Shown piece after piece: positions 7,976-31,679 of a DNA stretch of 58,475 nt. Position 1 is the first letter of the stretch. The number at the start of each line of letters is the position of its first letter. Location: the IMG/VR virus record IMGVR_UViG_3300045988_031867. One strand, given 5' to 3'. The DNA comes from a virus. The position numbers and the translations under genes are program-made. Below the pieces are notes generated by a model that made no database searches, had not been told where the DNA came from, and worked only from the letters and a program-made list of their open reading frames with translations.

Positions 7976-9379
7976 ACTGTCGGTTCTTGATTTTTTTGTA
8001 TTTTTATTTTCTTCCTTTACCATATCTATTGTCTTATATAACACATCAAAATATGGCTGTGACTGTAAAGATACTTTTTCCGCATCGCCCCATAATCCAC
8101 AAGTCGCAACCGCTATTCTTGGGTTTATTCCTGCTTGTAACATTTGCGTGAGTGCTTGTGCTTTTGTATAGAGATTATCTAATGGACTGTGGTTGATTTG
8201 CACATCAAAATCTCTTGGCGATAATTTCAAGTCATTTCCTGCTAGTCGCAATACATTCAAAGTTACTATTGCAAGTCTTTTTTCTGCTGATTTTACAATA
8301 GGGTCTTTTTGCTTTGCCCTAGTCTTTGAAAAATCCCAGCCAGCTCTTAAAGATACCGCTCCTTGTGTATCACCACCGGAATTTTGCGACTCTCTATTAG
8401 GTATTGCTAAAATAGCTTGAAGATTATCAAGCAAATCATCTTTAGCAACTTGGCATTGTGTCTGATTAAGTTCCTGTGACATAATTTCGACATCAGATTT
8501 ATTGTCTTTATTGATAGACTTAACAGTAAGTGCATGGCTTTCTTTCATCTTCTTAAAGGTATCTTCGTCAATCTCACAATTAACGAACTTAACCCAGTAC
8601 TCAACAAACTGTTGTATGCTATCCATTCTGTTAGACTGCATATTGTTGATAGCGTCAAGCATACCGATAACAAGCTCAATATCCGATAATCTTTCGTGAT
8701 TGTTTGGAAATTCAACAATCGGTATTTCTCCGTATGTGTGAAGCTTTACCGACTTAACAGTACTGTCAACAATGGTAAATGACATTGTGTCGCTAAATGC
8801 CAACTTGTACCAGTTTCCGTCCTCGTCTTTAAGCTCCTGCACCGCAAGCAAAGGTTCCTCGGTACTGCGATTATAAATAACAAACGTATTCATTGGTGTA
8901 GGTGCAACGATTCTGAACGGAATATCGCCATTTTTAGGTTGTACTGCTTTAAATGACGTTCCTGTTGCCGACTGCCGCTCACCAGCCTTTATATCCTTTT
9001 CATGTTTGTTTGCGTCTGACATGAAATCGTTAAGCATATCAACAGCCTCGTTAATGGCTTTGTCATCTTTTCGGCTGATAAATTGTATAGGTTCACCATA
9101 GGTTTGCCCTGTCTTAAACTGCACAATCTCGTAAGCATGGTTCTCACAAATGTAATTGGTTATATCCTGATTAGCTGTCTTTCGGCGGTATAATACCGGT
9201 TGGTCGCCCTTGTAATAGTCCCATAGATACTTAATAATCGGTTTATTCCAGTAAAACACACCGATACAATCTCCAATAACCTTGACAACATTGTTGACTG
9301 TTATGGTTTCAACATCTGTATATGCAATTTTTCTGCCATAGCAACCTCTAACAAGGTCTTGAAGAGTTCTGTTGTTCAT
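7955..9379 (-). CDS. Portal protein (SPP1 gp6-like)
   Basis: 474 aa downstream of terL. Size, position and motifs such as YYKGDQPVLYRRK are typical of gp6-type portals. Confidence 0.8.
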   Translation of the reverse strand: MNNRTLQDLVRGCYGRKIAYTDVETITVNNVVKVIGDCIGVFYWNKPIIKYLWDYYKGDQPVLYRRKTANQDITNYICENHAYEIVQFKTGQTYGEPIQFISRKDDKAINEAVDMLNDFMSDANKHEKDIKAGERQSATGTSFKAVQPKNGDIPFRIVAPTPMNTFVIYNRSTEEPLLAVQELKDEDGNWYKLAFSDTMSFTIVDSTVKSVKLHTYGEIPIVEFPNNHERLSDIELVIGMLDAINNMQSNRMDSIQQFVEYWVKFVNCEIDEDTFKKMKESHALTVKSINKDNKSDVEIMSQELNQTQCQVAKDDLLDNLQAILAIPNRESQNSGGDTQGAVSLRAGWDFSKTRAKQKDPIVKSAEKRLAIVTLNVLRLAGNDLKLSPRDFDVQINHSPLDNLYTKAQALTQMLQAGINPRIAVATCGLWGDAEKVSLQSQPYFDVLYKTIDMVKEENKNTKKSRTDSLTSIGS

Positions 9380-9393
9380 TGATTATCTGCTCC

Positions 9394-9591
9394 TTAAAGA
9401 TATGTCATGCCACTTGCCGTTCTCCTTGGCTCCCATGGCTTTATGTCCGTAATGCCTGTATTTGTGTAATACACAACCTTTTTGTGGCACTTACGGCAAC
9501 CGGCAATTATATTCCCTGAATATTTTCCGTCCCACTCCGCAACCCGGCGGTGGCATTGTGGACAGTATATTTTGCATTTATCTTTTTTCAT
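9394..9591 (-). CDS. Small zinc-ribbon protein (Com-like)
   Basis: 65 aa with two CxxC pairs (CPQC...CRKC) in a basic context. The layout recalls Mu Com-type zinc fingers. Confidence 0.4.
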   Translation of the reverse strand: MKKDKCKIYCPQCHRRVAEWDGKYSGNIIAGCRKCHKKVVYYTNTGITDIKPWEPRRTASGMTYL

Positions 9592-9605
9592 AAATTACCT
9601 TTCAC

Positions 9606-9634
9606 GCAAAAAGCACCGCCATTAAGACGGTGCT
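9606..9634 (-). terminator. Intrinsic terminator inside the late operon
   Basis: Minus strand reads agcaccg-tcttaatgg-cggtgct followed by TTTTT. It lies between the DUF1492-like gene and the zinc-ribbon/portal genes. Confidence 0.6.
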
Positions 9635-9721
9635 TTCCAAAGAGGAATGAATATTAAGCTCTTGAACGACTTTTTTCAAGTATAACTATATCATAAGCAC
9701 AATATGACATTCTATGACATT

Positions 9722-10144
9722 TTACAGATACTCATTGCCGTATCTTTCCTCAAATTTCCGTAATGCTTTTCCATGGAGCCTTACAATCTGTCTCCACGAA
9801 TAGTTAAGCTCTGTTGCGATGACCTCGAAAGTCTTTTTTTCAATGTACCTCGAAAAAAGAATGTTGTAACAGTCCTCGTCCTCTACGCTGTCTATTTGGG
9901 CTATTATGAGGTTTTTCTTATCGACATACTCGTCAATCATCTTATCAAGGTTTCGCTCCATCTCGTCAATCTTGGCGATGCTTGTACCGATTTTGTCAAA
10001 GTTTTGGCTTGTCTGAACCCTATCCCCACTTGTTATAGCCGATATAGAGCAAGCCATTTCTTTAAGTTGCTGTATTTCAACAAGCTTATTGTTAATCATG
10101 CGATTAAGCCGGCTGATTTGATTAAGATAGTCTTTGGTTGTCAT
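9722..10144 (-). CDS. DUF1492 / RinA-ArpU-like late transcriptional regulator (sigma region-4-like HTH)
   Basis: Start moved to ATG 10144 behind SD AGGAGGTGA. The C-terminal pattern ILFSRYIEKKTFEVIATELNYSWRQIVRLHGKALRKF matches a sigma-70 region 4-like HTH. Confidence 0.6.
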   Translation of the reverse strand: MTTKDYLNQISRLNRMINNKLVEIQQLKEMACSISAITSGDRVQTSQNFDKIGTSIAKIDEMERNLDKMIDEYVDKKNLIIAQIDSVEDEDCYNILFSRYIEKKTFEVIATELNYSWRQIVRLHGKALRKFEERYGNEYL

Positions 10145-10148
10145 CGTG

Positions 10149-11891
10149 TCACCTCCTGAATGGATTAACTGCTGCTTCACATTTAGCTACTAAGCTACCT
10201 CTTGTAACGAAAAGGCAAAAGTTAGCCAAGCCGTCCGGCACATCGTCATGGTCATTTTTGCCGACTACTGAATAGGTCAAAAGCCATGACATCATAACTC
10301 CGTAATCTTCTTTAGGCTTATATTTTTCTTTGTCCCTGAAAAGGACGTGTCTCTTGACCCAATCGGCATTAACAATAATTCTTGTTTCCTTGTTTGTCTC
10401 GGTCGGCTTATCTGTGATATTGCATCTTCCACCCATTTCCTCAACTCTTTGAGCAACTTCATAGGATACTCTGTCTCCTCCTGAATTGCTTTCGAACTCG
10501 CACTGTTGCATTTTGTGGTCTACAATGATGTTAGATAAGCGGCTATACTGTATGCCGTAATCTGTCGTATCATCGCAGATGCAATCAACCAAGTAAAAAT
10601 CGTTGTCGAACTGGTACATACAAGGCAAGAACATAAAGTCGGTTCCTTTGTTCTTAACATCGCAGATTCCGAGGATTGCATCCGGTTCCCTAAGCGGCAT
10701 TGATATAAAACGTCTAAGGTCGTCATCATGGTAAAGTAGTCCTTCGCGCTCAACTGGCTCATTTTTGTACAAACAACAATATGAAATATCGTCCATAGTA
10801 AGCTCTTGGTCGTGGAAAAACTCAACCGACATTCCATTATATTTGTAGTCAAAATTACTTTTTCCTGTAACCGGGTCAATATCAGGAACCGCGATAAAAC
10901 GAACCCTGTCGCTTTTGGCGTAAATTCTTTGTAATCTCCCTATAACATCGTGTACACTCCAACGTGTAGCAATATGAATTTCCTTAACTTGCTCATTCAG
11001 CTTTCTTTGCCTTGCATCAGTTCCATATATACGCCACAGCTTATCAAGTGCTTTCTTATTAAGTGCTTCTTCAATGCCACTAACAAGGTCATCACAATAC
11101 AAATATCTGTTACATCTAACCTTACCGGCATTCTTACTGCCGACAGATGTACATTGTATATTTGAGAACGCTTTTGGCTTGTCAAAATTGATACGCTGTC
11201 TTTTTGCATCTGTATTTTGCAGTTTTACGTCAGGAAAAATTTCGCTCCATGTGTATTCTTCGCTATTGGTAGTTATATCAAGAACTCCATCATAAAACAT
11301 TCTTGTAATGTCGTCAGAGTGTGAGAAAAACAAGCTATAATCTTTCGGGTGTCTACCTATTATCCATGAGCAAAAAAACTTCTCTAACGTGGTTTTCTGT
11401 GTGCCGGGTGGCATTGAGATAGATAAAAGGTCAAGCTTATCATCTTCGAGGTCTTGCAAAGCTTGAATCAGACCATGCCTGTTTAACTGTTCCATTTTCG
11501 GGGCATAAAATTTTTCTTCTTCTTGCCTATTTTTTTCAAGATACAGTAGATAACTGTGGAAAAGATATGGTGCCTCTAATTTCAACAAGTCATAGTACTT
11601 GTCAAGGATTTGGTAATTTTTCTTTGTTTGGTTAGCCAGTGAATCCAAATCCCATATAGACATCTTAGCCAAACTTAGCACATACTGTTCTATGAGCTCT
11701 TTAGAGCGCTTAGAAATCTTTAATCCATACTCTGTATCTTTTTCGTTCAGATACGCCGTTTTTGATGCGTCTATGTATGCTCCGATTACCTTATCATCTA
11801 TTCCGCTTTGCTTTATGTAGTTTTCGTATCCTTGGATTGTTTGCTTCAGATATTCAGATGCCAAAAGAAAAAGCACCTCGCTTTCCAGCAA
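10149..11891 (-). CDS. terL: Terminase large subunit
   Basis: 580-aa ORF. It has a P-loop-like MPPGTQKTT, a Walker-B-like YLYCDDLV, and a C-terminal acidic nuclease-type motif NDHDDVPDGL. The true start is uncertain; TTG 11864 behind GAGGTG is plausible. Confidence 0.8.
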   Translation of the reverse strand: MLESEVLFLLASEYLKQTIQGYENYIKQSGIDDKVIGAYIDASKTAYLNEKDTEYGLKISKRSKELIEQYVLSLAKMSIWDLDSLANQTKKNYQILDKYYDLLKLEAPYLFHSYLLYLEKNRQEEEKFYAPKMEQLNRHGLIQALQDLEDDKLDLLSISMPPGTQKTTLEKFFCSWIIGRHPKDYSLFFSHSDDITRMFYDGVLDITTNSEEYTWSEIFPDVKLQNTDAKRQRINFDKPKAFSNIQCTSVGSKNAGKVRCNRYLYCDDLVSGIEEALNKKALDKLWRIYGTDARQRKLNEQVKEIHIATRWSVHDVIGRLQRIYAKSDRVRFIAVPDIDPVTGKSNFDYKYNGMSVEFFHDQELTMDDISYCCLYKNEPVEREGLLYHDDDLRRFISMPLREPDAILGICDVKNKGTDFMFLPCMYQFDNDFYLVDCICDDTTDYGIQYSRLSNIIVDHKMQQCEFESNSGGDRVSYEVAQRVEEMGGRCNITDKPTETNKETRIIVNADWVKRHVLFRDKEKYKPKEDYGVMMSWLLTYSVVGKNDHDDVPDGLANFCLFVTRGSLVAKCEAAVNPFRR

Positions 11892-11963
11892 AGGTGCTTA
11901 TAGACCTCTGCCTATAATTGTTTTAGGTTAGCGACTACAATCAATCTGTAGCCGGTAATATTT

Positions 11964-13172
11964 TTATTCGTTTGCTTTGAAATTGTAAATCGGTTTTATA
12001 ATGTCAACTATTTCAACAGTATCTTTTATATTTTCAATTATTTCATCCATTGTTTTATATGCCATAGGGCTTTCATCAATCGTAGATGTATTTACGGATG
12101 TTGTAAATATTCCATCCATTGCTTTTTGATACTCTTCTAGCAAAATGCTTTCTTTTGCCTTTGATCTACTCATAGTTCGCCCCGCCCCATGCGGTGCTGA
12201 ATAATTCCAATCTTCATTTCCCTTGCCAATTCCCAAAATGCAACCGTCACGCATGTTTATCGGTATCAGTACCTTTTCGCCTGTTTTTGCAGAAATAGCA
12301 CCTTTACGAACAATATTTGTATCGTGTTCAATATAGTTGTGAATTGTTTGAAATCGTTCCGTTTCTTTTGTAACTTCCCAACCCATATAGTAACAAATAA
12401 TGCTCTGAATGGCTCTTCTGTTAATTTCCGCAAACTCTTGGCATAATTTCATATCGTGTAAATACATTTCTCTATGTTTCCCAACAAGATATGATAACTC
12501 TCTAGGGATTTTAGTTGTATTTGTTTCGTAGGACTGCTTTAATTCTTTGATAGCCTTGTTAATTTCTCTTTCTCTTTTACATTTTTTGTATTCAGCAATC
12601 AATTTCTCACTATCTTGTTTAAAGTTTGATTTTCCCAAAATATCGTCAATCGCCATTTGCTGATATATTTCTGCAACTTGCTTTCCAACATTTCTACTTC
12701 CCGAATGAATAACAAGATATTTATTATTCTTGCTATCGCTATCAACTTCGATAAAATGATTGCCGCCTCCCAGCGTGCCACAACTTCTTTTCAGCCAATC
12801 TATATTTTTCAACTGCTCCTTGCAATACAATTTTTCAATAATATCGCTTGCGACAGATGAGTTTTCTTCTTCATGAACTTTTCTACCACTTGGAACATAT
12901 TCTCTAATGACGTTATCTAATCTCTCAAAATCAATATCAATATTCCCCAAGTTTGTAGTAAGCATCCCACAGCCTATGTCAACTCCAACAATGTTCGGTA
13001 TTACTTTTTCTCCTAAATCAGCAGTAAACCCGATAACACACCCTGCTCCTGCGTGAACATCTGGCATAATTCTTATCTTACAATCCGAAAATGCTGGCTG
13101 TTTTACAAGCGTATATATCTGATTTAATGCTTCATGTTCTATATTTTCTGTAAATATTTTCAAATCAGCCAT
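11964..13172 (-). CDS. rtcB: RtcB-family RNA 3'-phosphate/5'-OH ligase
   Basis: Diagnostic motifs are MPDVHAGAGC, GGGNHFIEV, HSGSRNVG and APHGAGR. Length is 402 aa. Confidence 0.9.
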   Translation of the reverse strand: MADLKIFTENIEHEALNQIYTLVKQPAFSDCKIRIMPDVHAGAGCVIGFTADLGEKVIPNIVGVDIGCGMLTTNLGNIDIDFERLDNVIREYVPSGRKVHEEENSSVASDIIEKLYCKEQLKNIDWLKRSCGTLGGGNHFIEVDSDSKNNKYLVIHSGSRNVGKQVAEIYQQMAIDDILGKSNFKQDSEKLIAEYKKCKREREINKAIKELKQSYETNTTKIPRELSYLVGKHREMYLHDMKLCQEFAEINRRAIQSIICYYMGWEVTKETERFQTIHNYIEHDTNIVRKGAISAKTGEKVLIPINMRDGCILGIGKGNEDWNYSAPHGAGRTMSRSKAKESILLEEYQKAMDGIFTTSVNTSTIDESPMAYKTMDEIIENIKDTVEIVDIIKPIYNFKANE

Positions 13173-13197
13173 GATACGTCCCCCTTTCCGCTGACAA

Positions 13198-13425
13198 TCA
13201 GCAATTTATTTTAATGCCCTCTGTTAATATGGCGGTTTTGTCCTCATTCAGAATTGTATTTCCGTTTTCATCCGTTTTATGCCATCGTGCATTAACTTTA
13301 ATCATTGGACTTTGCTTTGCATGAGCGATAAAATGTAACTCCATGTCCGTGCATCTTACTTTTTTGCCGTCAATAAACACTTGTGCAGTTTTACCATCGG
13401 ATATTATCTTAATTTTCTCATTCAT
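13198..13425 (-). CDS. Hypothetical protein
   Basis: 75-aa ORF, translationally coupled to its neighbour (8-nt overlap). Confidence 0.55.
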   Translation of the reverse strand: MNEKIKIISDGKTAQVFIDGKKVRCTDMELHFIAHAKQSPMIKVNARWHKTDENGNTILNEDKTAILTEGIKINC

Positions 13426-13657
13426 TCCTCATAAACCTCTCAAAATCTTTTCTGCACTTAGGACATAATTCATATGTTTTTTCTAAAAATTTATATCTGC
13501 GAACATTCTTAATTTCAAGACACATATCATTATCTTCAAAAGTGGGAACTATATCTCCGCAACATCCAACTTGCTTAAATCTAACTTCTTTCCAGCTCTT
13601 AGGTATCATTTCTTTTCCGCACCTGTCGCAAGTGTGCCATTCTTTTTGATGTTTCAT
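13418..13657 (-). CDS. Small zinc-ribbon protein
   Basis: 79 aa with CDRCG...CPKC pairs. Its start overlaps the upstream stop. Confidence 0.6.
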   Translation of the reverse strand: MKHQKEWHTCDRCGKEMIPKSWKEVRFKQVGCCGDIVPTFEDNDMCLEIKNVRRYKFLEKTYELCPKCRKDFERFMRNE

Positions 13658-13848
13658 GATTCCCTCGCATTCTTCGACAGTCTCAAATCAATTGTCGCAC
13701 CACATTCGCATTTTATTTTTGTGCCGAATATAATTTCTTCATGATACTTTCCGCAGTTTGAACACGTAAAGTCAACACTGTAAAGTCTGTTTTTTGTAGA
13801 CATATATCCCATACAGCCAAGTGCTTCTGCCACTATCGTTTCTTTCAT
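13654..13848 (-). CDS. Small zinc-ribbon protein
   Basis: 64 aa with CSNCG...CECG. Confidence 0.55.
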   Translation of the reverse strand: MKETIVAEALGCMGYMSTKNRLYSVDFTCSNCGKYHEEIIFGTKIKCECGATIDLRLSKNARES

Positions 13849-13860
13849 TCTTCCACCGCC

Positions 13861-14115
13861 TTAATATCCGCCGTTAAATTCCGAAAGCCATTCTTTTAGC
13901 TCTACATGTGCCTTAGCAAAGCAAAGTTCCATGTCGCAATCACTTTCATTGACAATTATTACATCTTCGCCGTCATGCTTAGCCTCAGGGTAATCATCAG
14001 CACAGCCTTTTTTATAAATCAAAATATTCCAATCACATATTTTGCTATAAGTAATTACAAGATGCATTGGAAAGTCTTTTGCTTTATCGTCAAAAAATTT
14101 TAAAAATTCGTTCAT
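13861..14115 (-). CDS. Hypothetical protein
   Basis: 84-aa ORF coupled to its neighbours. Confidence 0.55.
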   Translation of the reverse strand: MNEFLKFFDDKAKDFPMHLVITYSKICDWNILIYKKGCADDYPEAKHDGEDVIIVNESDCDMELCFAKAHVELKEWLSEFNGGY

Positions 14116-14333
14116 TCTTTCACCAACTCTCTACCACACATAGGGCAATAAAATATTTTCTTTTTTAAAACCGAAAACCTAAGGTTTGAAGGCAAATTGT
14201 CAAAAACCATTTCCAACACCAATCCATTGTCCTGTATTTTAGCCTCACAGATTTTTATTTTTTCACCCATTACACCGCTTTGTTCCGTACTTGAGATTAT
14301 AGCCTCCGGCTTATTGCTGCAAAATTTGCACAT
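14112..14333 (-). CDS. MCKFC...YCPMCGR zinc-ribbon paralog 3
   Basis: 73 aa. N-terminal MCKFC and C-terminal YCPMCGRELV are shared with the two upstream ORFs. Confidence 0.65.
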   Translation of the reverse strand: MCKFCSNKPEAIISSTEQSGVMGEKIKICEAKIQDNGLVLEMVFDNLPSNLRFSVLKKKIFYCPMCGRELVKE

Positions 14334-14334
14334 A

Positions 14335-14547
14335 TTACACCAGCTTTCTACCGCACATAGGGCAATAATTGATATTTAATGCTCCTGCTCCGTACTCGTT
14401 TGCACTATTAGTAAAGACTAGTGCGTTATTATCTGTTATTTTTCGTATTTCTATTTTAATTCCACTAGGAACTATGTCAAAATCTTCTTCTGGTAAGAAA
14501 TTCCAATCTGGAAGTCCTATTCCTATGTTTTCGCAAAATTTACACAT
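14335..14547 (-). CDS. MCKFC...YCPMCGR zinc-ribbon paralog 2
   Basis: Start moved to ATG 14547 (MCKFCENIG), 2 nt after the upstream stop. C-terminal NYCPMCGRKLV. Confidence 0.65.
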   Translation of the reverse strand: MCKFCENIGIGLPDWNFLPEEDFDIVPSGIKIEIRKITDNNALVFTNSANEYGAGALNINYCPMCGRKLV

Positions 14548-14549
14548 AC

Positions 14550-14801
14550 TTAGTCCTCTCTCAGTTTTTCGCCACACATAGGACAGTAATTAATCTTTAC
14601 AACCTTAGTCATAACTAAAGGCTTTATATGTTCGTTATCAAGGCAAGCAACTATATTCAGTGTGCTATCCTCAGCACTAACAAATGCCTGTATTCCGGTA
14701 TAGTAGCCCTCGTTATATTTGCTTTCTTTTCTTTCAGACAGTTCCTTTACCTCAAACGCTAAATCATGTTCATTAAATTTCTGTTCGCAAAATTCACACA
14801 T
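14550..14801 (-). CDS. MCEFC...YCPMCGE zinc-ribbon paralog 1
   Basis: 83 aa with MCEFCEQ at the N-terminus and NYCPMCGEKL at the C-terminus. Confidence 0.65.
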   Translation of the reverse strand: MCEFCEQKFNEHDLAFEVKELSERKESKYNEGYYTGIQAFVSAEDSTLNIVACLDNEHIKPLVMTKVVKINYCPMCGEKLRED

Positions 14802-14806
14802 ATATC

Positions 14807-15046
14807 TTAAATCCTCGTAAAGATTTCTAAATCATAGTTATCTCTGATATAGTCAACAACTTCCTGTAATTTGCTCTTTACAAATTCGTCTTGTGCAATA
14901 TAAGGGTGTGCGTAAAGCATGCAGCTATATTTTTTACCCTCAGCTTTATATTTAGGATAATTGAATGTCATCGTAAACAATGGTATTCTTTTTAAATTTT
15001 TAGTCTTGTATCGGATGTACAGATTTGCTAATCTTCTCAAACTCAT
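14807..15046 (-). CDS. Hypothetical protein (start uncertain)
   Basis: 79-aa ORF. ATG 15046 has a short-spaced GAGGT and overlaps the upstream gene by 47 nt. The alternative ATG 14971 lacks an SD. Confidence 0.4.
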   Translation of the reverse strand: MSLRRLANLYIRYKTKNLKRIPLFTMTFNYPKYKAEGKKYSCMLYAHPYIAQDEFVKSKLQEVVDYIRDNYDLEIFTRI

Positions 15047-15218
15047 TTACCTCGTTCATTGTCAATGCCATAATAAAGCCGCAGTTATCATATTTTTTTC
15101 CAAGCTCACTGCTTTCTGTGACTATTTCAGCCCACATTTTATCATCGGCAAACTTTATCTTGTCGATGTACTTCTTGTGGAATGTCCATATATCTCTATA
15201 CATGCCAAAATAGTCCAT
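15000..15218 (-). CDS. Hypothetical protein
   Basis: Start moved to ATG 15218 (MDYFGMYRDIW...) behind SD ACGGAGGAC. 72 aa. Confidence 0.55.
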   Translation of the reverse strand: MDYFGMYRDIWTFHKKYIDKIKFADDKMWAEIVTESSELGKKYDNCGFIMALTMNEVNEFEKISKSVHPIQD

Positions 15219-15417
15219 TGTAGTCCTCCGTAATTCAGTGTCAATAATGAAAGATTGATGCGGTATGGATTTGCACCACACATGATTGATTTCTGAAAGC
15301 TGTTTGTTGCTAATTACGGACAATCCCCGCTTATTACTCGGCAAACATGCTATCAATCAGCTTCTTTGCTTGCGTTTACCTATTCCGCTACACACCAATA
15401 GACAATTTATGCCTAAA

Positions 15418-15489
15418 TGACGCATGGGAGAATCGAACTCACGTCTCCGCCGTGAAGGGGCGGTGTCTTAACCACTTGACTAATGCGCC
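15418..15489 (-). tRNA. tRNA-Glu(UUC)-like, with C at position 33 and a U:C mismatch in the T-stem
   Basis: Hand fold: GGCGCAT TA GTCAAGTGGTTAAGAC A CCGCC CCTTCAC GGCGG AGAC GTGAG TTCGATT CTCCC ATGCGTC A. The architecture is collinear with Bacillus-type tRNA-Glu. No encoded CCA. Confidence 0.75.
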
Positions 15490-15582
15490 ATGTCCGCTCT
15501 TTGTTTTACTTGCCGAGCGGTGGCAAGGCTACACGAAAATTGAATCAAAAAGGGGTATTGCTTTGCGCCTCATTCGAGGCAG

Positions 15583-15656
15583 TCGGAATAGCAGGATTTG
15601 AACCTACGACCTCTCCAGCCCAAGTGGAGCGTTCTGCCAAACTGAACTATATTCCG
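15583..15656 (-). tRNA. tRNA-Pro(UGG)
   Basis: Hand fold: CGGAATA TA GTTC AGTTTGGCA GAAC G CTCCA CTTGGGC TGGAG AGGTC GTAGG TTCAAAT CCTGC TATTCCG A. The cloverleaf is regular. Confidence 0.85.
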
Positions 15657-15884
15657 TAAGTGCAGACTGGGCGACAGCGAGAATCAGCAGCGTCGCAAGC
15701 TTCCCGGCTTATGTTGTCCGCACTGTTGCTATTCTTTTAGCGTGTTATGGAACGCTGGGGAACTACAGCAACAAAACCCGAAAACCTATCGAGCCTTGTG
15801 ACGGCTCTTAACAGCATTCCGCTAATAGGTGGAGTTTATGAAACAACATGACTTAAAAGTCCGATGGTCATTTGCATGACCAAA

Positions 15885-15956
15885 CTGGGCTAGTCGGATT
15901 CGAACCGACGAATACAGCAGTCAAAGTGCTGTGCCTTACCGCTTGACGATAGCCCA
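15885..15956 (-). tRNA. tRNA-Gln(UUG)
   Basis: Hand fold: TGGGCTA TC GTCAAGCGGTAAGGCA CAGCA CTTTGAC TGCTG TATTC GTCGG TTCGAAT CCGAC TAGCCCA G. The U1-A72 pair and D-arm are typical of bacterial tRNA-Gln. Confidence 0.85.
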
Positions 15957-16072
15957 AAAAATTACATGTCTTTAAACATCTGCATAAGTGCCCTTATGGC
16001 TATGGCAAAATCATTATGAGTACTATTATTATGCCGATTATAAATATCCCTAAAGCTGTCAGACCGAGAAAT

Positions 16073-16249
16073 CTAATTATCCCCATTGCTTTTATCATGC
16101 CTTTCCTTGTGTTCAAATTGGCATTTAATCATATCTGCCACATGCTCACGCTCTGTGCCTATGCCGTGACCTTTGACGAACAGCACGCACTCAAATATGT
16201 TGCCGCAACGTGAGCACTCATCATTTATTTCTCTGCCTAGATATTTCAT
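16073..16249 (-). CDS. Small Cys-containing protein, 58 aa
   Basis: SD AAAGAGGT lies 6 nt before ATG 16249. Sequence MKYLGREINDECSRCGNIFECVLFVKGHG... is below the ORF-track cutoff. Confidence 0.45.
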   Translation of the reverse strand: MKYLGREINDECSRCGNIFECVLFVKGHGIGTEREHVADMIKCQFEHKERHDKSNGDN

Positions 16250-16418
16250 TTAACGACCTCTTTATCGCCTCATCTAAGGCTTTTTCTGACTGTCTAGCAC
16301 CTAAGTTCATACCGAAACTGATTATCCTGATTAAAACCGATATACCGATTGCCACGAAACACCATGCAGGGGCTTCAAGCCTGCATAAAATTCCAAATAC
16401 TACCAAATCCGTTATCAT
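16221..16418 (-). CDS. Small membrane protein
   Basis: 65 aa with two hydrophobic segments. ATGA start/stop coupling with the MazG-like gene. Confidence 0.5.
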   Translation of the reverse strand: MITDLVVFGILCRLEAPAWCFVAIGISVLIRIISFGMNLGARQSEKALDEAIKRSLNEISRQRNK

Positions 16419-16795
16419 ATATCGCCCTCCGTCCTATTGTTAGCTCTGTATGTGTCAAAACCCTTAGGGTAACGTGCTTTGAGTTTGTCAATGTTTGTCT
16501 GCATGACATCATCAAGCGTAAATTCGCAAGCGTCACATATCATTGCCAAGTACCATGCGCAATCACCCAGCTCCTTTTTGAGGTGTTCTAAGTCTATGCC
16601 TTTTTCGTGGAATATGCCCTTCTTGATAAGGTCTGAGACTTCCCCGGCCTCGCCAGTAAGTCCTAATGCTCCATTAAGCAACTGTGATACTGATATGTCA
16701 CCCTGATTTGCTATTGCGTCCTCTAACCGCAGTCTATTAAGTCCATCGTTGGTTCTCATTGCCAACTGCTGATATTCTTTGCCTGTCATATTCAT
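16415..16795 (-). CDS. mazG: MazG-like nucleoside triphosphate pyrophosphohydrolase
   Basis: 126 aa with LGLTGEAGEVSDLIKK and ELGDCAWYLA motifs (EExxE/D-type MazG core). SD AAAGGAGA. Confidence 0.8.
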   Translation of the reverse strand: MNMTGKEYQQLAMRTNDGLNRLRLEDAIANQGDISVSQLLNGALGLTGEAGEVSDLIKKGIFHEKGIDLEHLKKELGDCAWYLAMICDACEFTLDDVMQTNIDKLKARYPKGFDTYRANNRTEGDI

Positions 16796-17089
16796 TCTCC
16801 TTTATGTGATAAGGGCTTTTTATTTTTGTCGGAGTTTTCGGGACTTAGAGAGGGCATATCCAGCAACCATATAACCCCCACCCGGGCTGGTCCCGTGTCA
16901 TCAGCCCATTTATACACAATTCTCAAACAATTCATGCAATAGCGTTATCATTCCATCCTGTTCTGCTCAACTATTCGTTAAACCTAACTTTTGCGAATAG
17001 TTTACAATAGGCTGTAAATCCGCAAACCCTTATAAATAGGGCATTTGTGAATTGTATAGAATTGTGTGAAAACTCCATGTGATAAAACA

Positions 17090-17719
17090 TCAATTATCAC
17101 TGTCAATCACGGAGCTATTATCGGACAACTCAAGCGGTCTCGGCTGCTGTCCGAGCTGTATCAACGCATCGGCTCCAAGGGCTTCTCTCTCCGTTCTCTC
17201 CGCTCTGGCTCCCGGCATATTCCAGCCGTGGTATCTGTTTAACTTAGGTAACACTTTCATAGGATTAAGCCTTCTATCTTTCATCAGGTTGAATAGGCTC
17301 TCTTCGTTATCTTCGGCTATTTTTTTAGCCAAATCGGAACGCTGAGAACCAAGTACACCGTTAGACCAGTCATACAACGTCTGTCTATTTATACCAGACA
17401 TATCAAGAAAGCCCTTAATAGTCACCTCTTGACAATGACTATTACACAGACGCTTATATATATAATTATAAACATATTCAACTTTGTCTATGTCATACTC
17501 ATTATGAATACCGTCTACTTTTTTAAGTACTTTATTACATGGACCAAACAGTAATATGTTTAACTCTGTAATTATGTCAGCCCATATAGTCGGAAATATA
17601 TCATTCTCGTCAATGTTATGTCTATTGCAGTAATTAGTGACTATATCACTAGCTACAATTCTCATATCATCAACAGTCCTGATTGTCTGAATATCATAAC
17701 CGTTATTATCGTCACACAT
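17090..17719 (-). CDS. terS: Terminase small subunit (putative)
   Basis: 209 aa with strong SD GGAGGTGA, the first gene after a long AT-rich promoter region. HTH-like GINRQTLYDWSNG is followed by LFNLMKDRRLNPMKVLPKLNRYHGWN, a pattern typical of TerS proteins. Confidence 0.55.
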   Translation of the reverse strand: MCDDNNGYDIQTIRTVDDMRIVASDIVTNYCNRHNIDENDIFPTIWADIITELNILLFGPCNKVLKKVDGIHNEYDIDKVEYVYNYIYKRLCNSHCQEVTIKGFLDMSGINRQTLYDWSNGVLGSQRSDLAKKIAEDNEESLFNLMKDRRLNPMKVLPKLNRYHGWNMPGARAERTEREALGADALIQLGQQPRPLELSDNSSVIDSDN

Positions 17720-17954
17720 AATATAATCACCTCCAAATCATAATCTTAATCTCTCTCACACATGAGATTATCATATCACATGATTGGTGACATGACTATA
17801 TACATAAAGTATATAAAATATAACTTTGGGGTATTTAAGCATAGTACTTTGGTACTAATCGCATATACAGTATATAATTATATACGTTTTTTAAAAAAAC
17901 TGATTATTTATTTACAAATTCTCATTAATCTCATCTTCTCTAATCTTATCTTTT

Positions 17955-17993
17955 CTAGGCTACATTCTGTTGACAGTTTGTATACAGATTTTA
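17955..17993. repeat. Conserved 39-bp element, copy 1 (TTGACAG + TGTATACA palindrome)
   Basis: ctaggctacattctgttgacagtttgtatacagatttta matches 50876-50914 at 33/39 positions by hand count. The flanking taatcttatct is also shared. Confidence 0.8.
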
Positions 17994-18250
17994 TCACGTT
18001 AATGCAATGATGTGGTAACTGCAGGCTTCCGGCAGTTCTGAAAGTTATAATATAATATACATTTGCGAATCATTTTTGGGGATTAAATAAGATACATTGT
18101 TAAGATATTAACAGAACGACAAAAAGACTATATAACCAGTTGTTAATAGTCTAAAAATATAAATGTGTGAGATTATTTAATTATTATTATAATAACATTA
18201 AGTTAATTTTTTGTCAATGATTAAAATACATCAATATAAAATATGATACA

Positions 18251-18279
18251 TTGACAATCAGCCGTAAATCATGTATGCT
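18251..18279 (+). promoter_or_regulatory. Sigma-A-type promoter (plus strand)
   Basis: TTGACA at 18251-18256, a 17-nt spacer, and TATGCT at 18274-18279 preceded by TG. Confidence 0.55.
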
Positions 18280-18285
18280 GTGAGA

Positions 18286-18431
18286 GCTGGAAGTGCCGAC
18301 CGTTAATGTCGCTTGGTATCATTGTTTAATCGGTCGTGACTTGGCAGGAGCCATTATTATTTAATTTAATAGGCACTTTACAGCAGAAAACGAACCGGGA
18401 AAGTTCTTAACCTCGCCCGGTTCGCTTTTTT
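18286..18431 (+). ncRNA. Candidate ~145-nt small RNA (promoter-to-terminator unit without ORF)
   Basis: Bounded by the promoter above and a 9-bp-stem terminator at 18391-18431. An internal long-range stem pairs aagtgcc (18291-97) with ggcactt (18372-78), enclosing hairpin cgaccg/cggtcg. No SD-led ORF is present. Confidence 0.4.
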
Positions 18432-18846
18432 AATACAGATTTTCAAACGCTTCTGAAATTGAAGCTGTCAATTTTGAACTGGACAACTTGGAATTGCCGG
18501 CTTTTTCGACAGCTTTCGGCAAATTGTTTTTAAAATCGGATGCCGCTCTTAACGCATCTGATTTTATCTCTCGCCATGTGCGGTCAACTATATTAATATA
18601 ATAGTCACACTGTGAGCCGCTTCCGGTCGGCTTGTGGTCGGATATTCTGATTTTATAACAATTTCCGTCATTGTCGGAAATTGTCAGATAATTGCTCATG
18701 CCATAACATGAGCTTTCATCATGCAGACAAGATAAACCTGTCTGTGATTCTACCTTGCTTGCAAGGCACTCACACCTTGCCGCAAGGTAGTTCTTGCATG
18801 TGTAGTACCTTGTTCTATTTTTATCATCGAATTTAAAATCTGACAT
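18430..18846 (-). CDS. Hypothetical Cys-rich protein (KIRISDH motif)
   Basis: 138-aa ORF with SD GAAGGAGGA. Function unknown. Confidence 0.65.
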   Translation of the reverse strand: MSDFKFDDKNRTRYYTCKNYLAARCECLASKVESQTGLSCLHDESSCYGMSNYLTISDNDGNCYKIRISDHKPTGSGSQCDYYINIVDRTWREIKSDALRAASDFKNNLPKAVEKAGNSKLSSSKLTASISEAFENLY

Positions 18847-18878
18847 TTTAAATCCTCCTTCATTTTTTATTTTTAAAA

Positions 18879-18928
18879 AGCAACCCGGGGAGTTGAACCC
18901 CGGCAGTGCGCCGCCTCCGGCGGTTGCC
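18879..18928 (-). other. tRNA-like minihelix element A (7-bp acceptor-like stem, 4-bp hairpin, canonical T-arm)
   Basis: Minus strand: ggcaacc gccggaggcggc gcactgc cgggg ttcaact ccccg ggttgct, then TTTT. It starts 7 nt after the stop of ORF 18936..19208. Confidence 0.6.
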
Positions 18929-18935
18929 TAACTGT

Positions 18936-19208
18936 TTACCGCAAACCGAGTGCCTCCAACTCGCTGCGTTCCCAGTCGCTGACAACACAGCGTATCGCCA
19001 GCTCTGGGTCATATCCGTACTTCAATGTACGGAGTTTTGAGCAATACTCATCTGCGCATCGCTCGATGAAATCACAATCACTAGGGTTAATTGTGATTGT
19101 GTCGTTCTCAAGGAGTTCTGGCAGCTCCCTGAGAACTTTTTTAATTTTTATAACTGCTGCTGGGTCGGCAGCTCTGTTTTCTCTTCTCCACTGAATTTTA
19201 AAATCCAT
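18936..19208 (-). CDS. Hypothetical protein
   Basis: 90-aa ORF with SD AGGAGGTG. Confidence 0.65.
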   Translation of the reverse strand: MDFKIQWRRENRAADPAAVIKIKKVLRELPELLENDTITINPSDCDFIERCADEYCSKLRTLKYGYDPELAIRCVVSDWERSELEALGLR

Positions 19209-19283
19209 GTTGGCACCTCCTGAATTTTAATTTTTCGTGTAGCAAACACACGTTCGGAAATTCTTCTCCCTTCCGACATCATT

Positions 19284-19317
19284 ATAATAGCATATCTTTA
19301 TCACTTTTGCAAGTGAT
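19284..19317 (-). promoter_or_regulatory. Promoter (TTGCAA-17-TATTAT) with overlapping operator ATCACT-N6-AGTGAT
   Basis: Inverted repeat at 19300-19317. The -35 is at 19307-19312 and the -10 at 19284-19289 on the minus strand. The same operator recurs at 19664-19681. Confidence 0.6.
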
Positions 19318-19321
19318 ATTT

Positions 19322-19570
19322 TTAATTTTTTGAAAAAATTCTTAATTTCTTCTCGCGCTCCTCTGCTGTCTCTTCATATATAAAAATGTCCTTCGGCTGC
19401 AAATCCAGTATCAGGCACAGGTTGTTGAGCGTTGTTAAGTTAATTCCTGTATCTTCATTCTTAATCTTCCTTAATGCGTCTTGGCTTATCAGCCTGGTTG
19501 TTTTGGCTTTATAAGTATTGAAGCCGGCGCGCTCCAAGGCATCGCCCACGTTAAATTTATACTTAAGCAT
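19322..19570 (-). CDS. XRE-like helix-turn-helix regulator
   Basis: Start moved to ATG 19570 behind SD GGAGGTGA. MLKYKFNVGDALERAGFNTYKAKTTRLISQDALRKIKN...LTTLNNLCLILDLQPKDIF looks like an HTH pattern. 82 aa. Confidence 0.6.
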   Translation of the reverse strand: MLKYKFNVGDALERAGFNTYKAKTTRLISQDALRKIKNEDTGINLTTLNNLCLILDLQPKDIFIYEETAEEREKKLRIFSKN

Positions 19571-19657
19571 CTTATCACCTCCTCGTTGTGTTTTTAATAT
19601 ATGGCAGTTTTTAAAAAAAGTCAATAAAAATATTTCTAAAAAAAGTGATAAAACCTA

Positions 19658-19686
19658 TTGACTATCACTGATAAAAGTGATATTAT
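19658..19686 (+). promoter_or_regulatory. Promoter TTGACT-17-TATTAT whose spacer is filled by operator ATCACTgataaaAGTGAT
   Basis: The -35 is at 19658-63, the operator at 19664-81 and the -10 at 19681-86. An extra AGTGAT half-site lies at 19644-49. Confidence 0.65.
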
Positions 19687-19761
19687 AATATCAACGAAAG
19701 GGAAATAGAACAGATGCAGAACATGTGTTTGTTGTACCCAAAAACAAGGAGGTGACTATAT

Positions 19762-19941
19762 ATGATGTTAATGGCAAGCGTGAGATATGAGGGAGAGATA
19801 CAAGTTGTAAAAAATGATACTTTTACAACAAAGAGAGCTTATGCAGATGCTCTCCGAGGCAACGGTTATCGCGTTCGCTTTATCGCCAAGCCGGAGGAGT
19901 TCGACGAGGTTTGCGAGAATTTTTACAGCCGTAAAAAATAG
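19762..19941 (+). CDS. Hypothetical protein, 59 aa
   Basis: SD AAGGAGGTGA lies 7 nt before ATG 19762. MMLMASVRYEGEIQVVKNDTFTTKRAYADALRGNGYRVRFIAKPEEFDEVCENFYSRKK. It is below the ORF-track cutoff. Confidence 0.6.
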   Translation: MMLMASVRYEGEIQVVKNDTFTTKRAYADALRGNGYRVRFIAKPEEFDEVCENFYSRKK

Positions 19942-19983
19942 CCGCCGTAGAGGATGCCAGCCGGACCGATACCGGCGGCGGTT
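19940..19983 (+). other. tRNA-like minihelix element D (degenerate T-loop)
   Basis: agccgcc gtagaggatgcca gccgg accgata ccggc ggcggtt. The 5' strand overlaps the TAG stop. It is followed by hairpin cccct-ctttat-agggg at 19986-20001. Confidence 0.4.
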
Positions 19984-20034
19984 CTCCCCTCTTTATAGGG
20001 GTATTAAAATTTTAACATTATAAGGAGGACGAAT

Positions 20035-25507: not shown

Positions 25508-25549
25508 AGCACTAGCATACCGCCGTAGGCACAGCATACAGTAAGTGCT
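25508..25549. other. Imperfect inverted repeat abutting the recombinase stop codon (candidate attP core)
   Basis: AGCACT AGCATAC cgccgtaggcac AGCATAC agta AGTGCT. The outer hexamers are inverted and the inner heptamers are direct. Confidence 0.25.
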
Positions 25550-26909
25550 AAAAATTCTTTAACTGTATCTCAATATTGCCATTGACAATGATTATCTTGT
25601 CAATTATAGTTTTTAATATCATATTTTTTTGTTTCTTGTCGATGCTGTCCCAAACATCGGCAAGTTTTTTTATTTCGTCATATACAATAGTATTCTTCTG
25701 CTTGACGGAAAAGTTTTTTTGTTCTTCCAATATATTCTCCTTAATCGCAGATATGTTTGCTTCAAGCTCCTTAATCATGCTCAACACTGTGTCGTTGCCA
25801 TCTGCATACAAGCCGTAAAGCCTTTTCAATTTTGCCTGTTCCTTGTCGAGTTGCGACTGCATAATATTAAGCTTTGTTTCCTTCTCCTTAGGCTTGTACA
25901 ACGATAAGTCAAGCGATATTTTGAGCATTTCTTTCTCGACTTGCTCCTCTATATCGTCCGCCCATTCGAGTGAATTATTGCAGTCCGGGTTGTGGTTTGG
26001 CAAATAAGACATAGCCTTATTCCTTGACATGCAATATATCTTGTGCTTTCCATGCGTCCACTTCTGGTATCTCATGGCGCATCCGCACACACCGCAATAA
26101 CACAGCCCGGTCAATAAGTTCGGTTCGGTTATACAGCTTGCCTTATTAAGGCTTCGGGATTTCCTCAGTTGCTGTGCAAGTTCAAACAACTCCTTATCAA
26201 AAATAGGCTCATGTAAGCCTTGATAAATTTTACCCTTGTATGGTATCATTCCGATATTTACTTCGCTTGTTAGAACCTTTCTCACTACAGATTCCAATTT
26301 AAAACCGCAAATTTCTTTAATTCTTGCATCTGAATAGCCGGATATGAACAATTCAAGACCTTTTCTTGCTTGTTCCGCTCGTTCCGGGATAGGTATTAAT
26401 ATACCTTGGTCTTTGCTATAAGAATAGCAATAAGGAGTATTGCCGCCACCTGGCCAGTAGCCTTGTTTTATTCTTTCCAGCATACCACCGCGCATACGCA
26501 ACATCATAGTATTTTTATCAAGCTGCGCAAAAACCGCCATCATTTGTGTATACGCCTGTTCCATTGGGCTATCATAGCTTACACTATCGTGTACGCACTT
26601 AAATTGTACGCCGTTTGGCTGAAATATCTTTTCAATCATATATAAACCATCAATCATATTCCTTGATAATCTGTCAAGCTTAAAAGCCACCACGCAAGAT
26701 AACCTCTTGTGCTTGCAGTCAGCAACAAGCCTTTGAAGCTCAGGGCGGTTCATATTCGCCCCGGTGTAGCCATCGTCAACATACCAATCTGTCACAATCA
26801 GCTCATTCTTGGAGCAGTAGTCGAGAATATCTCTCTTTTGGCTTTCCAATCCGTTACCTTCTTCGGCTTGCTTCTCCGTTGATACTCTCATGTACGCAAC
26901 ACATTCCAT
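25548..26909 (-). CDS. Large serine recombinase (integrase)
   Basis: 453 aa. N-terminal resolvase motif AYMRVSTEKQ, central recombinase domain, zinc ribbon CYCGVCGCAMRY and a C-terminal coiled coil. SD AGAGGAGGT. Confidence 0.9.
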   Translation of the reverse strand: MECVAYMRVSTEKQAEEGNGLESQKRDILDYCSKNELIVTDWYVDDGYTGANMNRPELQRLVADCKHKRLSCVVAFKLDRLSRNMIDGLYMIEKIFQPNGVQFKCVHDSVSYDSPMEQAYTQMMAVFAQLDKNTMMLRMRGGMLERIKQGYWPGGGNTPYCYSYSKDQGILIPIPERAEQARKGLELFISGYSDARIKEICGFKLESVVRKVLTSEVNIGMIPYKGKIYQGLHEPIFDKELFELAQQLRKSRSLNKASCITEPNLLTGLCYCGVCGCAMRYQKWTHGKHKIYCMSRNKAMSYLPNHNPDCNNSLEWADDIEEQVEKEMLKISLDLSLYKPKEKETKLNIMQSQLDKEQAKLKRLYGLYADGNDTVLSMIKELEANISAIKENILEEQKNFSVKQKNTIVYDEIKKLADVWDSIDKKQKNMILKTIIDKIIIVNGNIEIQLKNF

Positions 26910-28934: not shown

Positions 28935-29126
28935 CTATCTCACTAAATCTTCTAACTTAACTCCAAATCCGTCCATTTTCTTACTTTCTAAGAACGTATT
29001 CGTGTCAAAGAATACCAATGTATGATTCTCTTTATCGAATCCCATTGACACGCCATTCCTTGTAAGGCTACCTTTTAGCAAATCTAGGACTATTTGTATT
29101 TCCTGTTTTGTATTGTCTGTCATCAT
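28935..29126 (-). CDS. Hypothetical protein
   Basis: 63-aa ORF with SD AAGGAGAA. Confidence 0.55.
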   Translation of the reverse strand: MMTDNTKQEIQIVLDLLKGSLTRNGVSMGFDKENHTLVFFDTNTFLESKKMDGFGVKLEDLVR

Positions 29127-31026: not shown

Positions 31027-31679
31027 TCCACACCTCCGATAAAATCACTTAATCTCATTTGAGCCATTTCACAATCAAGTCTTTGTTTTGATGCCTTATA
31101 ATAGCATTCGTCAAGTTCGAAGCCTATAAATTTATGGTTAGTGTTATAGCAAGCTATCAGACTGCTAGCACTTCCTACATGAGTATCAAGAATAATATCA
31201 TTAGGCTTTGCATATCTGCTTAATAACCATTCATATAGTGCTACTGGTTTCTGCGTTGGGTGTATGCGGTTTTTGTTGAATGGAGCATACTTAAAAATCC
31301 TTGCGCCATCGTCAAATGAAGTCCACGCAAACTCGCATTCACTAAAACTTCTGCCATACATTCCCTCTGCTTTATCCCATATCAGAAAACATCTTGTAGG
31401 CGGAAGATTGAAATAATTACCGCCCCAAATAATCTGCTCTTTCGACACTCTGACCAATTCGTCAAAATATGCAGTTGTCGGTTTCTTCTTATCCCAATCG
31501 TTCTTTACCCATTTTCTATTTTCCTTCTTAGAACATTTAATAGATGTACCCAATCCCATATTCATGTTTGCAATATCCAAGCCGTATGGTGGATCTACAA
31601 TCGCAAAGTCAAAATATTTGTCTGGAAATTCTTTCATTCCTTGCATACAATCCATGTTGTAATATCCAAAATCTAACAT
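31023..31679 (-). CDS. DNA N6-adenine/N4-cytosine methyltransferase (DPPY type)
   Basis: FAIVDPPYG plus HPTQKPVALYEWLL and a C-terminal SAM-binding ILDTHVGSASS. This is a beta-class motif order. 218 aa. Confidence 0.85.
   Translation of the reverse strand: MLDFGYYNMDCMQGMKEFPDKYFDFAIVDPPYGLDIANMNMGLGTSIKCSKKENRKWVKNDWDKKKPTTAYFDELVRVSKEQIIWGGNYFNLPPTRCFLIWDKAEGMYGRSFSECEFAWTSFDDGARIFKYAPFNKNRIHPTQKPVALYEWLLSRYAKPNDIILDTHVGSASSLIACYNTNHKFIGFELDECYYKASKQRLDCEMAQMRLSDFIGGVE

Follow-up and report, generated by a model that had tools for sequence, protein, structure and literature searches.

The T4 enzymes Pnkp and Rnl1 reseal tRNA-Lys that PrrC, an abortive-infection nuclease of the host, has cut in the anticodon loop to 2′,3′-cyclic phosphate and 5′-OH ends (PMC10264068). 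Spare phage tRNAs have been experimentally established to defeat tRNA-cleaving defences (PMC11555353, PMC11464382), and escape through the anticodon loop is among the ways proposed for phage tRNAs (PMC10264068). Here we describe a 58,475-nt DNA, IMG/VR virus record IMGVR_UViG_3300045988_031867 (the window, to whose positions all coordinates refer), in which a gene for the RNA ligase RtcB, three tRNA genes, a MazG-type gene and a series of small open reading frames (ORFs) lie between the probable small terminase gene (terS) and the large terminase gene (terL). Through a comparison of this 5.2-kb stretch with its relatives, it was recognised as a hypervariable accessory region of independently exchanged cassettes, all in the direction of the packaging genes, and RtcB as a sharply bounded cassette that takes the region's last slot, with terL following directly in nearly every case. 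The logic that we propose for RtcB is the same as in T4. However, T4 uses a healing enzyme and an ATP-dependent ligase for 5′-P/3′-OH ends, whereas RtcB is an unrelated GTP/Mn2+ ligase that joins a cyclic or 3′-phosphate to a 5′-OH directly, so that one gene would suffice.

Phage RtcB genes are common, and the RNA-repair and spare-tRNA ideas are already published. A role of both against RNA-cutting defences has been proposed before and is plausible. GenBank holds 684 phage records with an RtcB homolog, mostly from Mycobacterium, Bacillus and Listeria phages, and RtcB together with tRNAs in phages has been interpreted from comparative genomics as an RNA-repair adaptation (PMC7824862). Our literature search found only this comparative-genomics hypothesis for the role of phage RtcB, and no experimental test of it. 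Large virulent phages (jumbo phages, Bacillus SPO1-like phages, cluster C mycobacteriophages and Listeria phages) combine an RtcB-family ligase with tRNAs, as the window does (PMC7824862), but their RtcBs are at most about 52% identical to that of the window, and those listed in full are in genomes of 150–165 kb. In contrast, the window is a 58-kb temperate siphovirus with three tRNAs, in which RtcB has a fixed slot by terL and is exchanged within the bounds of its ORF. The T5-type spare tRNAs, directed against retron/PtuAB and PARIS, share with the present tRNAs the varying arrays and the non-canonical anticodon loops, here with a C at position 33 (C33) (PMC11555353, PMC11464382, PMC10264068); the window differs in that a codon-compensation signal is also present. 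The cellular RtcB and RtcBA–RtcR operons of Clostridia encode the same enzyme family, with homologs 51–61% identical to the window RtcB, but no RtcA, RtcR, archease or PrfH partner was seen among the annotated ORFs of the window. What is new here is the population-level spread of the cassette, the natural variants with and without it, its fixed slot by terL in gut phages that are small and temperate, and C33 as a recurring tRNA variant.

The RtcB protein matches PF01139 over its full length (199.7 bits against a cutoff of 27, E = 1.3e-58) and phrog_1075 over residues 3–402 (E = 1.5e-128). When aligned with the RtcB structures of Thermus and Pyrococcus, the protein is covered in three of the catalytic motif regions (PDxH/DIxCG, GxGNHF/HxGSR and HGAGR), and the catalytic residues PDVH37–40 (D38/H40), D65/C68, N138/H139, H156 and H328 are all kept; the set takes in the metal-binding Asp, Cys and His residues and the histidine that becomes guanylylated. 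H278 is presumably the histidine of the HNY motif, a placement taken from general knowledge of the family and not from the alignment. The protein stays below the NCBIfam equivalog cutoffs PRK09588 and TIGR03073, which stand for the E. coli-type and PrfH-linked subfamilies. The ratio of nonsynonymous to synonymous substitution (dN/dS) is 0.03–0.10 and the synonymous divergence to the spread copies described below is 0.15–0.22. This points to a recent common origin under purifying selection and not to a dead gene, which argues that ligase activity is retained. The initial annotation, which had called an RtcB with all signature motifs and named a catalytically dead gene as what would undermine its proposal, is therefore upheld on this point. 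With an intact RtcB, the phage is predicted to encode an enzyme able to reseal nuclease-cut tRNA.

RtcB is a presence/absence polymorphism on one backbone, since near-identical backbones occur with it and without it. The identical RtcB protein was found in 23 independent assemblies of window-type phage. In contrast, none of 30 IMG/VR loci selected by TerL and analysed with tblastn and blastn holds RtcB (loci compared with the window carry L numbers below). Nine loci with a TerL 98–99% identical to that of the window have other cargo in the slot, either a 128-aa nucleoside-deoxyribosyltransferase-like gene or other ORFs. In 11 close relatives, blastn homology to the window restarts at 11961–11968, the position of the RtcB stop codon. 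The clearest case is L020, with flanks 97–98% identical to the window, in which a 1.46-kb segment of RtcB and the 75-aa ORF upstream of it (o75) is swapped for 65-aa and 128-aa ORFs; the latter matches phrog_355, nucleoside 2-deoxyribosyltransferase, at E = 6e-5. Pfam recognised nothing in the alternative slot cargo of the relatives.

The same RtcB also occurs in very different backbones. In IMG/VR, a close relative of RtcB occurs at 198 loci, and the following figures come from the best 80, ranked by RtcB identity and compared over flanks of up to 7 kb. RtcB identity is 95–99% at the amino acid level (median 97.3%), with medians of 96.3% for nucleotides and 91.8% for third codon positions. 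The adjacent TerL is 28–56% identical, the portal protein 24–88% and the terS-like protein 27–57%. DNA about 96% identical beside such divergent TerLs indicates that RtcB has spread laterally in recent time. The identity falls off sharply at the ORF boundaries: the median is 96% for the RtcB ORF, 74% for the 43 nt upstream, 79% for the spacer and 61% for the first 200 nt of terL. Outside the RtcB-centred blastn alignments (about 11690–13215), identity of at least 85% is seen in at most a few of the 80 loci for any window segment. In most loci RtcB lies 72–104 nt upstream of terL, and in some the two are set apart by other cargo of 0.5–1.6 kb or by a terL N-terminus that bears an intein. More distant RtcBs, 89% and 79% identical, also adjoin terL (TerL 48% and 33% identical, respectively). 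The gene directly upstream of RtcB varies among RtcB-plus loci. o75 is found without RtcB in L005 and L011–L014 and is missing from most RtcB-plus loci; it is not linked to RtcB.

No cassette-flanking repeats that would explain targeting were found, the zinc-ribbon paralogs described below being the only repeats. Co-travel of the terL 5′ end with RtcB, indicated by blastn segments that reach about 11689, was considered and rejected: identity there is about 61%, and the TerL N-termini have 24–40 of 75 residues in common. Intein-homing co-conversion as the driving force of RtcB spread, an idea raised by LAGLIDADG inteins in some TerLs, is not supported either, because the high identity ends at the RtcB stop codon.

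Many relatives have terL products of 913–938 aa (L031–L036, with terL at 9313–12117, as well as L067, L084, L116, L019, L022 and L027–L030). The L031–L036 product matches LAGLIDADG_3 and Hom_end, and in L019 the TerL sequence is interrupted after the Walker A motif (GTQK|C). These long genes look like carriers of homing-endonuclease inteins, which the 580-aa TerL of the window lacks.

The initial annotation had correctly noticed that ORFs and three tRNA genes separate terS from terL, and it had read them as an accessory island. The comparison with related phages that it called for found the split in all of them and no indel: every relative examined has a variable region between the same two genes, and a single inserted island can be dismissed. 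Wherever both genes are detectable, the terS-like gene lies 1.9–9.1 kb upstream of terL. The intervals (2–9 kb) usually hold tRNAs and are mosaics of the same small-gene families in varied combinations with sharp blastn breakpoints. Even where TerL is 98–99% identical, the conserved flanks enclose differing sets of small co-oriented ORFs. The cultured Clostridium phage Maintenon (ON453900, host [Clostridium] innocuum), with a TerL 41.5% identical to that of the window, has the same gene order of terS, small ORFs and tRNAs, terL and portal. Its interval is 2.65 kb, in contrast to 5.2 kb in the window, and holds about 11 small ORFs, tRNA-Trp and tRNA-Gln, without RtcB or MazG. Since all relatives and Maintenon share the separation, the split is ancestral to the phage group.

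Megablast of 9300–18900 against GenBank phages gave no match. The nearest GenBank record is Dulem virus 39 (PP511791), a metagenomic lemur-gut virus with an RtcB 74% and a TerL 53% identical to those of the window. In this record, which is circular, the terminase gene comes first and RtcB last, which puts them side by side as in the window, but the other interval genes differ. Its terS is unannotated, because terS and terL are not neighbours in this lineage. A 213-aa protein of its interval (L207, 6381–7022) matches phrog_1491, named 'tail fiber protein', at E = 3.6e-53; the name may be wrong, since an accessory interval is an odd place for a tail gene.

The ORF at 17090–17719 is probably the small terminase gene. 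Homologs carry the name 'DNA-packaging protein' in NR, and 8 of 15 diverse family members weakly match PF16677 GP3_package, at best with E = 1.2e-4 and below the 29.4-bit cutoff. The match to phrog_606 (terS) has an E-value of 0.026; the HHpred-annotated terS of Maintenon, whose relatives carry PF16677 or PF10668, matches the same family at 2e-7. In hhalign, the candidate family aligned with the Maintenon terS family over 66 columns surrounding a helix-turn-helix core (probability 66.6%, E = 5.4e-5) when a five-sequence profile was used; with the single Maintenon sequence the probability was an uninformative 2.8%, and the rise came only with the profile. The AlphaFold model is all-helical, with a predicted local distance difference test (pLDDT) score of 70, and Foldseek against BFVD returned 'terminase small subunit' and 'gp3' models with probabilities of 0.8–1.0 but E-values of 0.01–0.3. 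The gene lies upstream of terL in the packaging cluster, in an order kept in all relatives at 2–9 kb. The window has no other terS candidate beside terL, that place being taken by RtcB.

Alternatively, the ORF might not be terS, and the region would then be the tail of the early/middle accessory region ahead of the packaging genes, with no split in a terminase pair. The ORF alone reaches no curated threshold in Pfam, PHROG or NCBIfam, a PDB profile search gave only chance matches (E about 0.7–0.9), PDB Foldseek gave nothing below E = 1, and a pLDDT of just 70 also favours this alternative. We nevertheless regard it as unlikely: five independent weak signals all favour terS, no alternative candidate adjoins terL, and the HHpred-annotated terS of Maintenon is likewise separated from terL. 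The terS assignment of the initial annotation is hence probable but unproven.

All three tRNA genes, tRNA-Gln(UUG), tRNA-Pro(UGG) and tRNA-Glu(UUC), were found by ARAGORN and by Rfam (59.5–66.1 bits against a gathering score of 29) and are real, as first annotated; Rfam on 9000–20000 gave these three and, below threshold, one tRNA-like match. At least one tRNA lies upstream of terL in 80/83 RtcB-plus and 17/23 RtcB-minus loci, a contrast that is not a test because the loci are phylogenetically related. tRNA-Gln(UUG) is near-universal in the group (70/83 and 13/23, respectively). The remaining tRNAs of the relatives are Pro, Glu, Asn, Ser, Met, Ile(UAU), Tyr, Cys, Leu and Gly, together with Asn(AUU), Ile(AAU) and some that resemble suppressors (anticodon UUA or UCA). 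The sets are hypervariable, and array content does not track RtcB.

At tRNA position 33, U is almost universal. The window tRNA-Gln and tRNA-Pro have canonical anticodon loops. The loop of tRNA-Glu reads C-C-U-U-C-A-C, hence C33, with otherwise normal stems. Within the group, C33 is present in 9 of 14 tRNA-Glu, 2 of 12 tRNA-Pro and 6 of 8 tRNA-Cys genes, so that no fewer than three different tRNA genes have acquired it. This recurrence fits the published idea of escape from nucleases through the anticodon loop (PMC10264068), a work in which position 33 goes unmentioned. Among RtcB-plus relatives, tRNA-Asn(AUU) occurs in 19 loci and tRNA-Ile(AAU) in 9, with nearly identical anticodon stems; the two look like alleles of one gene with A34, which is very unusual for bacterial-type tRNAs. 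Suppressor-like tRNAs were seen in 6 loci with a UUA and in 2 with a UCA anticodon (e.g. L037 1445–1529 and L038 1698–1782), and 6-nt anticodon loops also occur; both could serve stop-codon read-through or recoding, or be further nuclease decoys. The 227-nt spacer between tRNA-Gln and tRNA-Pro has a minimum free energy z-score of −2.73, only 1 of 200 shuffles folding as well, and keeps its length in relatives without belonging to any Rfam family; a role as processing element or as small RNA is conceivable.

The MazG-like nucleoside triphosphate (NTP) pyrophosphohydrolase of the initial annotation is confirmed by PF03819 (48.3 bits against a cutoff of 22, E = 1.2e-12), by phrog_229 (E = 5.6e-45) and by the retained metal-binding motifs GEAGE48–52 and ELGD75–78. 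Most close relatives have about 800 bp extra between the 47-aa ORF and MazG (L001 5106–5905, L003 4687–5485 and others), which the window lacks (16801–16814). Five zinc-ribbon proteins had been proposed, possibly as partners of RtcB. Three of them are tandem paralogs that match phrog_1494, a phage family without known function (E = 6e-10 to 1.5e-6), with the motif MCxFC...YCPMCG; their genes form direct repeats spaced 214–254 nt, and the copy number varies among relatives. The AlphaFold model of the trio has a pLDDT of 43, and Pfam gave only sub-threshold zinc-ribbon matches. The other two are unrelated CxxC proteins without a family, and genes like the one for the 79-aa protein of this pair occur in both RtcB-plus and RtcB-minus relatives. 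These families occur with and without RtcB, and no link to RtcB or to RNA repair is seen. PADLOC found nothing in ten proteins of the interval.

The minus strand carries every gene from about 19.6 kb down to position 1, and the features listed in Table 1 lie on it at the coordinates first annotated. The count of about 16 ORFs between the terminase genes was a slight overcount, since public gene calls on contigs with the identical RtcB give 12 coding sequences plus RtcB and leave the 47-aa and 38-aa ORFs uncalled. Nine small ORFs span 13198–15356.

Table 1. Features between the probable terS and terL of the window, in order of transcription
Feature	Position	Strand	Remarks
Probable terS, 209 aa	17090..17719	-	First gene of packaging/late cluster; weak matches only
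47-aa ORF, doubtful gene	16792..16935	-	tblastn 50-86% at same site in relatives; absent from public gene calls
MazG-type all-alpha NTP pyrophosphohydrolase, 126 aa	16415..16795	-	PF03819, phrog_229
65-aa hydrophobic protein	16221..16418	-	Kept beside MazG in relatives; no family match
58-aa Cys-containing protein	16073..16249	-	47-95% in relatives; no family match
The two ORFs above together with a 38-aa ORF	16000-16418	-	ORF list
tRNA-Gln(UUG)	15884..15957	-	ARAGORN; Rfam 59.5 bits
tRNA-Gln/tRNA-Pro spacer, 227 nt	15657..15883	-	Moderately structured
tRNA-Pro(UGG)	15582..15656	-	ARAGORN; Rfam 66.1 bits
tRNA-Glu(UUC), C33	15417..15490	-	ARAGORN; Rfam 59.9 bits
Small ORF, 118 aa from TTG	15000..15356	-	Public calls: 72 aa, ~15000-15218; no significant family match
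79-aa ORF	14807..15046	-	66-97% in relatives; no family match
Three tandem zinc-ribbon paralogs, 83, 80/70 and 73 aa	14112..14801	-	phrog_1494
84-aa ORF	13861..14115	-	86-99% in some relatives, missing in others; no family match
Two CxxC...CxxC proteins, 64 and 79 aa	13418..13848	-	Sub-threshold zinc-ribbon Pfam matches only
75-aa ORF (o75), directly upstream of RtcB	13198..13425	-	Found with and without RtcB
RtcB 3′-phosphate/5′-hydroxyl RNA ligase, 402 aa	11964..13172	-	PF01139, phrog_1075
RtcB-terL spacer, 72 nt	11892..11963	-	Homology with RtcB-less close relatives restarts here
terL, 580 aa	10149..11891	-	phrog_38 E = 2.7e-49; TIGR01630 and T7-type terminase nuclease domain sub-threshold

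The window looks like a complete temperate phage genome, related contigs being 55–61 kb. Temperateness is read from a large serine recombinase-type integrase (25548–26909, minus strand; phrog_95, E = 1.7e-97) and a CI-like repressor gene (44229–44732, plus strand). An anti-repressor, RecT, an SbcC-like protein and three DNA methyltransferases are also encoded. The methyltransferase genes lie in a row (29126–31679, minus strand; phrog_26324/116, phrog_116 and phrog_67) and presumably serve anti-restriction. Genome contigs of Blautia, Acetatifactor and Lachnospiraceae (up to 280 kb) carry RtcB homologs 64–78% identical, with terL coming next or no more than about 2 kb downstream. This makes a member of the Lachnospiraceae the probable host. 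The phages of the group form a large family, temperate siphoviruses that infect gut Clostridia, probably Lachnospiraceae.

Between the terL and portal genes is one for a sigma-70-like/DUF1492 regulator (9722–10180, minus strand), which shares 32 nt with the end of terL. An allele only 26–27% identical replaces it on backbones with a TerL 98–99% identical, so this site is a second mosaic hot spot within the packaging cluster. Just upstream of the gene at 18430–18846 is a tRNA-like minihelix (18879–18928, minus strand). It is made up of an acceptor-like stem of 7 bp, a small hairpin and a T-arm whose loop is GGTTCAACTCC, and a T-run comes after it. The minihelix has a sub-threshold Rfam match to mascRNA (E = 0.009) and a terminator-like call, and unlike its flanks it is 95% conserved in L004 and L016; it does not stand out in folding energy (z −0.74).

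We favour, as the likeliest explanation, a region of swappable cassettes in which RtcB provides RNA repair, and the tRNAs an independent top-up, against RNA-cutting defences. RtcB is separated from the ORF ahead of it by 25 nt and from terL by 72 nt, and no convincing promoter or terminator of its own was seen; from this it would be co-transcribed and produced together with the packaging genes. Using GTP and Mn2+, it would re-join halves of tRNA or other RNAs by linking a 2′,3′-cyclic or 3′-phosphate to a 5′-OH. Such ends would come from metal-independent ribonucleases, for instance HEPN-type anticodon nucleases, toxins, Cas13 and Csm6, and translation would continue once a host defence or toxin fires. 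The array would separately top up tRNAs or provide less nuclease-sensitive ones, the C33 tRNA-Glu being a candidate, and MazG may act in nucleotide-pool or alarmone hydrolysis. Several known defence sensors recognise capsid, portal or terminase proteins. Late co-expression would be sensible if it is late proteins that set off the relevant defences. The components would be additive and not an obligate module. The idea of counter-defence fits the population signature, namely RtcB present or absent on near-identical backbones, 96% identical copies in distant phages and hypervariable tRNA arrays with odd anticodon loops.

Several points weigh against it. The role of RtcB in counter-defence is one that we infer. 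The terS call that frames the region comes from sub-threshold matches only, though the five weak lines agree and it is probably right, and the ORF reaches no curated threshold by itself. The best 80 loci, being ranked by RtcB, show that near-identical copies exist in divergent backbones and not how frequent they are. The C33 in 9 of 14 tRNA-Glu genes may go back to a single inherited event. Of the Gln codons in late genes 45% are CAA, versus 30% in early genes, and codon compensation could therefore explain at least tRNA-Gln. The phage being temperate, the lysogen might also benefit.

The initial annotation had taken the tRNAs, RtcB and the zinc-ribbon proteins for one tRNA-protection and repair module, which would work together and be inherited as one inserted island. 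The components are all adjacent and co-oriented, and tRNAs accompany RtcB in nearly all RtcB-plus loci, but that contrast suffers from the relatedness of the loci. Against a dedicated module, the closest backbones keep the tRNAs, MazG and the zinc-ribbon genes without RtcB, tRNA sets are quite different among RtcB-plus phages, high DNA identity does not reach beyond the RtcB ORF, different genes lie directly upstream of RtcB, and the zinc-ribbon families are found with and without it. This explanation is very improbable.

A boost to translation without any defence is somewhat less improbable, if still unlikely. Here the tRNAs would offset late codons, RtcB would do housekeeping or stress repair, for example after host toxin-antitoxin RNases freed by shut-off, and MazG would sanitise or re-balance nucleotides. 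The late excess of CAA speaks for it, as do the share of ATA among Ile codons (35%), with tRNA-Ile(UAU) in relatives, and the cellular RtcB operons, which mend stress-damaged tRNA and rRNA (PMC7790460, PMC9304027). However, RtcB polymorphism and the rapid spread of one allele suggest selection that depends on the host strain and not a constant housekeeping need, and codon compensation does not predict recurrent C33 and A34 variants. RtcB and perhaps the tRNAs could also be lysogenic-conversion cargo (morons), expressed from the prophage and shielding the lysogen from tRNase or rRNase bacteriocins, contact-dependent toxins or antibiotics. The phage has the integrase, CI-like repressor and anti-repressor of a temperate phage, and its relatives are prophages in large Blautia and Lachnospiraceae contigs. 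The close spacing of RtcB to both neighbours, with no convincing promoter or terminator of its own, and its fixed position in the packaging cluster, which favours lytic-cycle expression, make this very improbable as well.

Beyond the preferred reading of swappable cassettes for RNA repair and tRNA top-up, it is a tentative thought that the one RtcB allele swept laterally into the same slot of many distinct Lachnospiraceae phages of the gut, the recurrent U33C in tRNA-Glu, tRNA-Pro and tRNA-Cys and the A34 in tRNA-Asn and tRNA-Ile are together the footprint of an ongoing arms race with one or more anticodon nucleases of the human gut. RtcB would then act as an anti-defence RNA ligase that a phage encodes in a single gene, and C33 would be an escape route for tRNAs not described before. 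For annotation, the finding corrects the habit of expecting terS beside terL, which are not neighbours in this lineage. The phages also offer a natural experiment, with the same backbone with and without RtcB, the same RtcB in very different backbones, and changing tRNA arrays. Through these natural variants it can be asked, in abundant Firmicutes phages of the human gut, whether RtcB counters RNA-cutting immunity, which host nucleases are involved and whether loops of the C33 type protect phage tRNAs.

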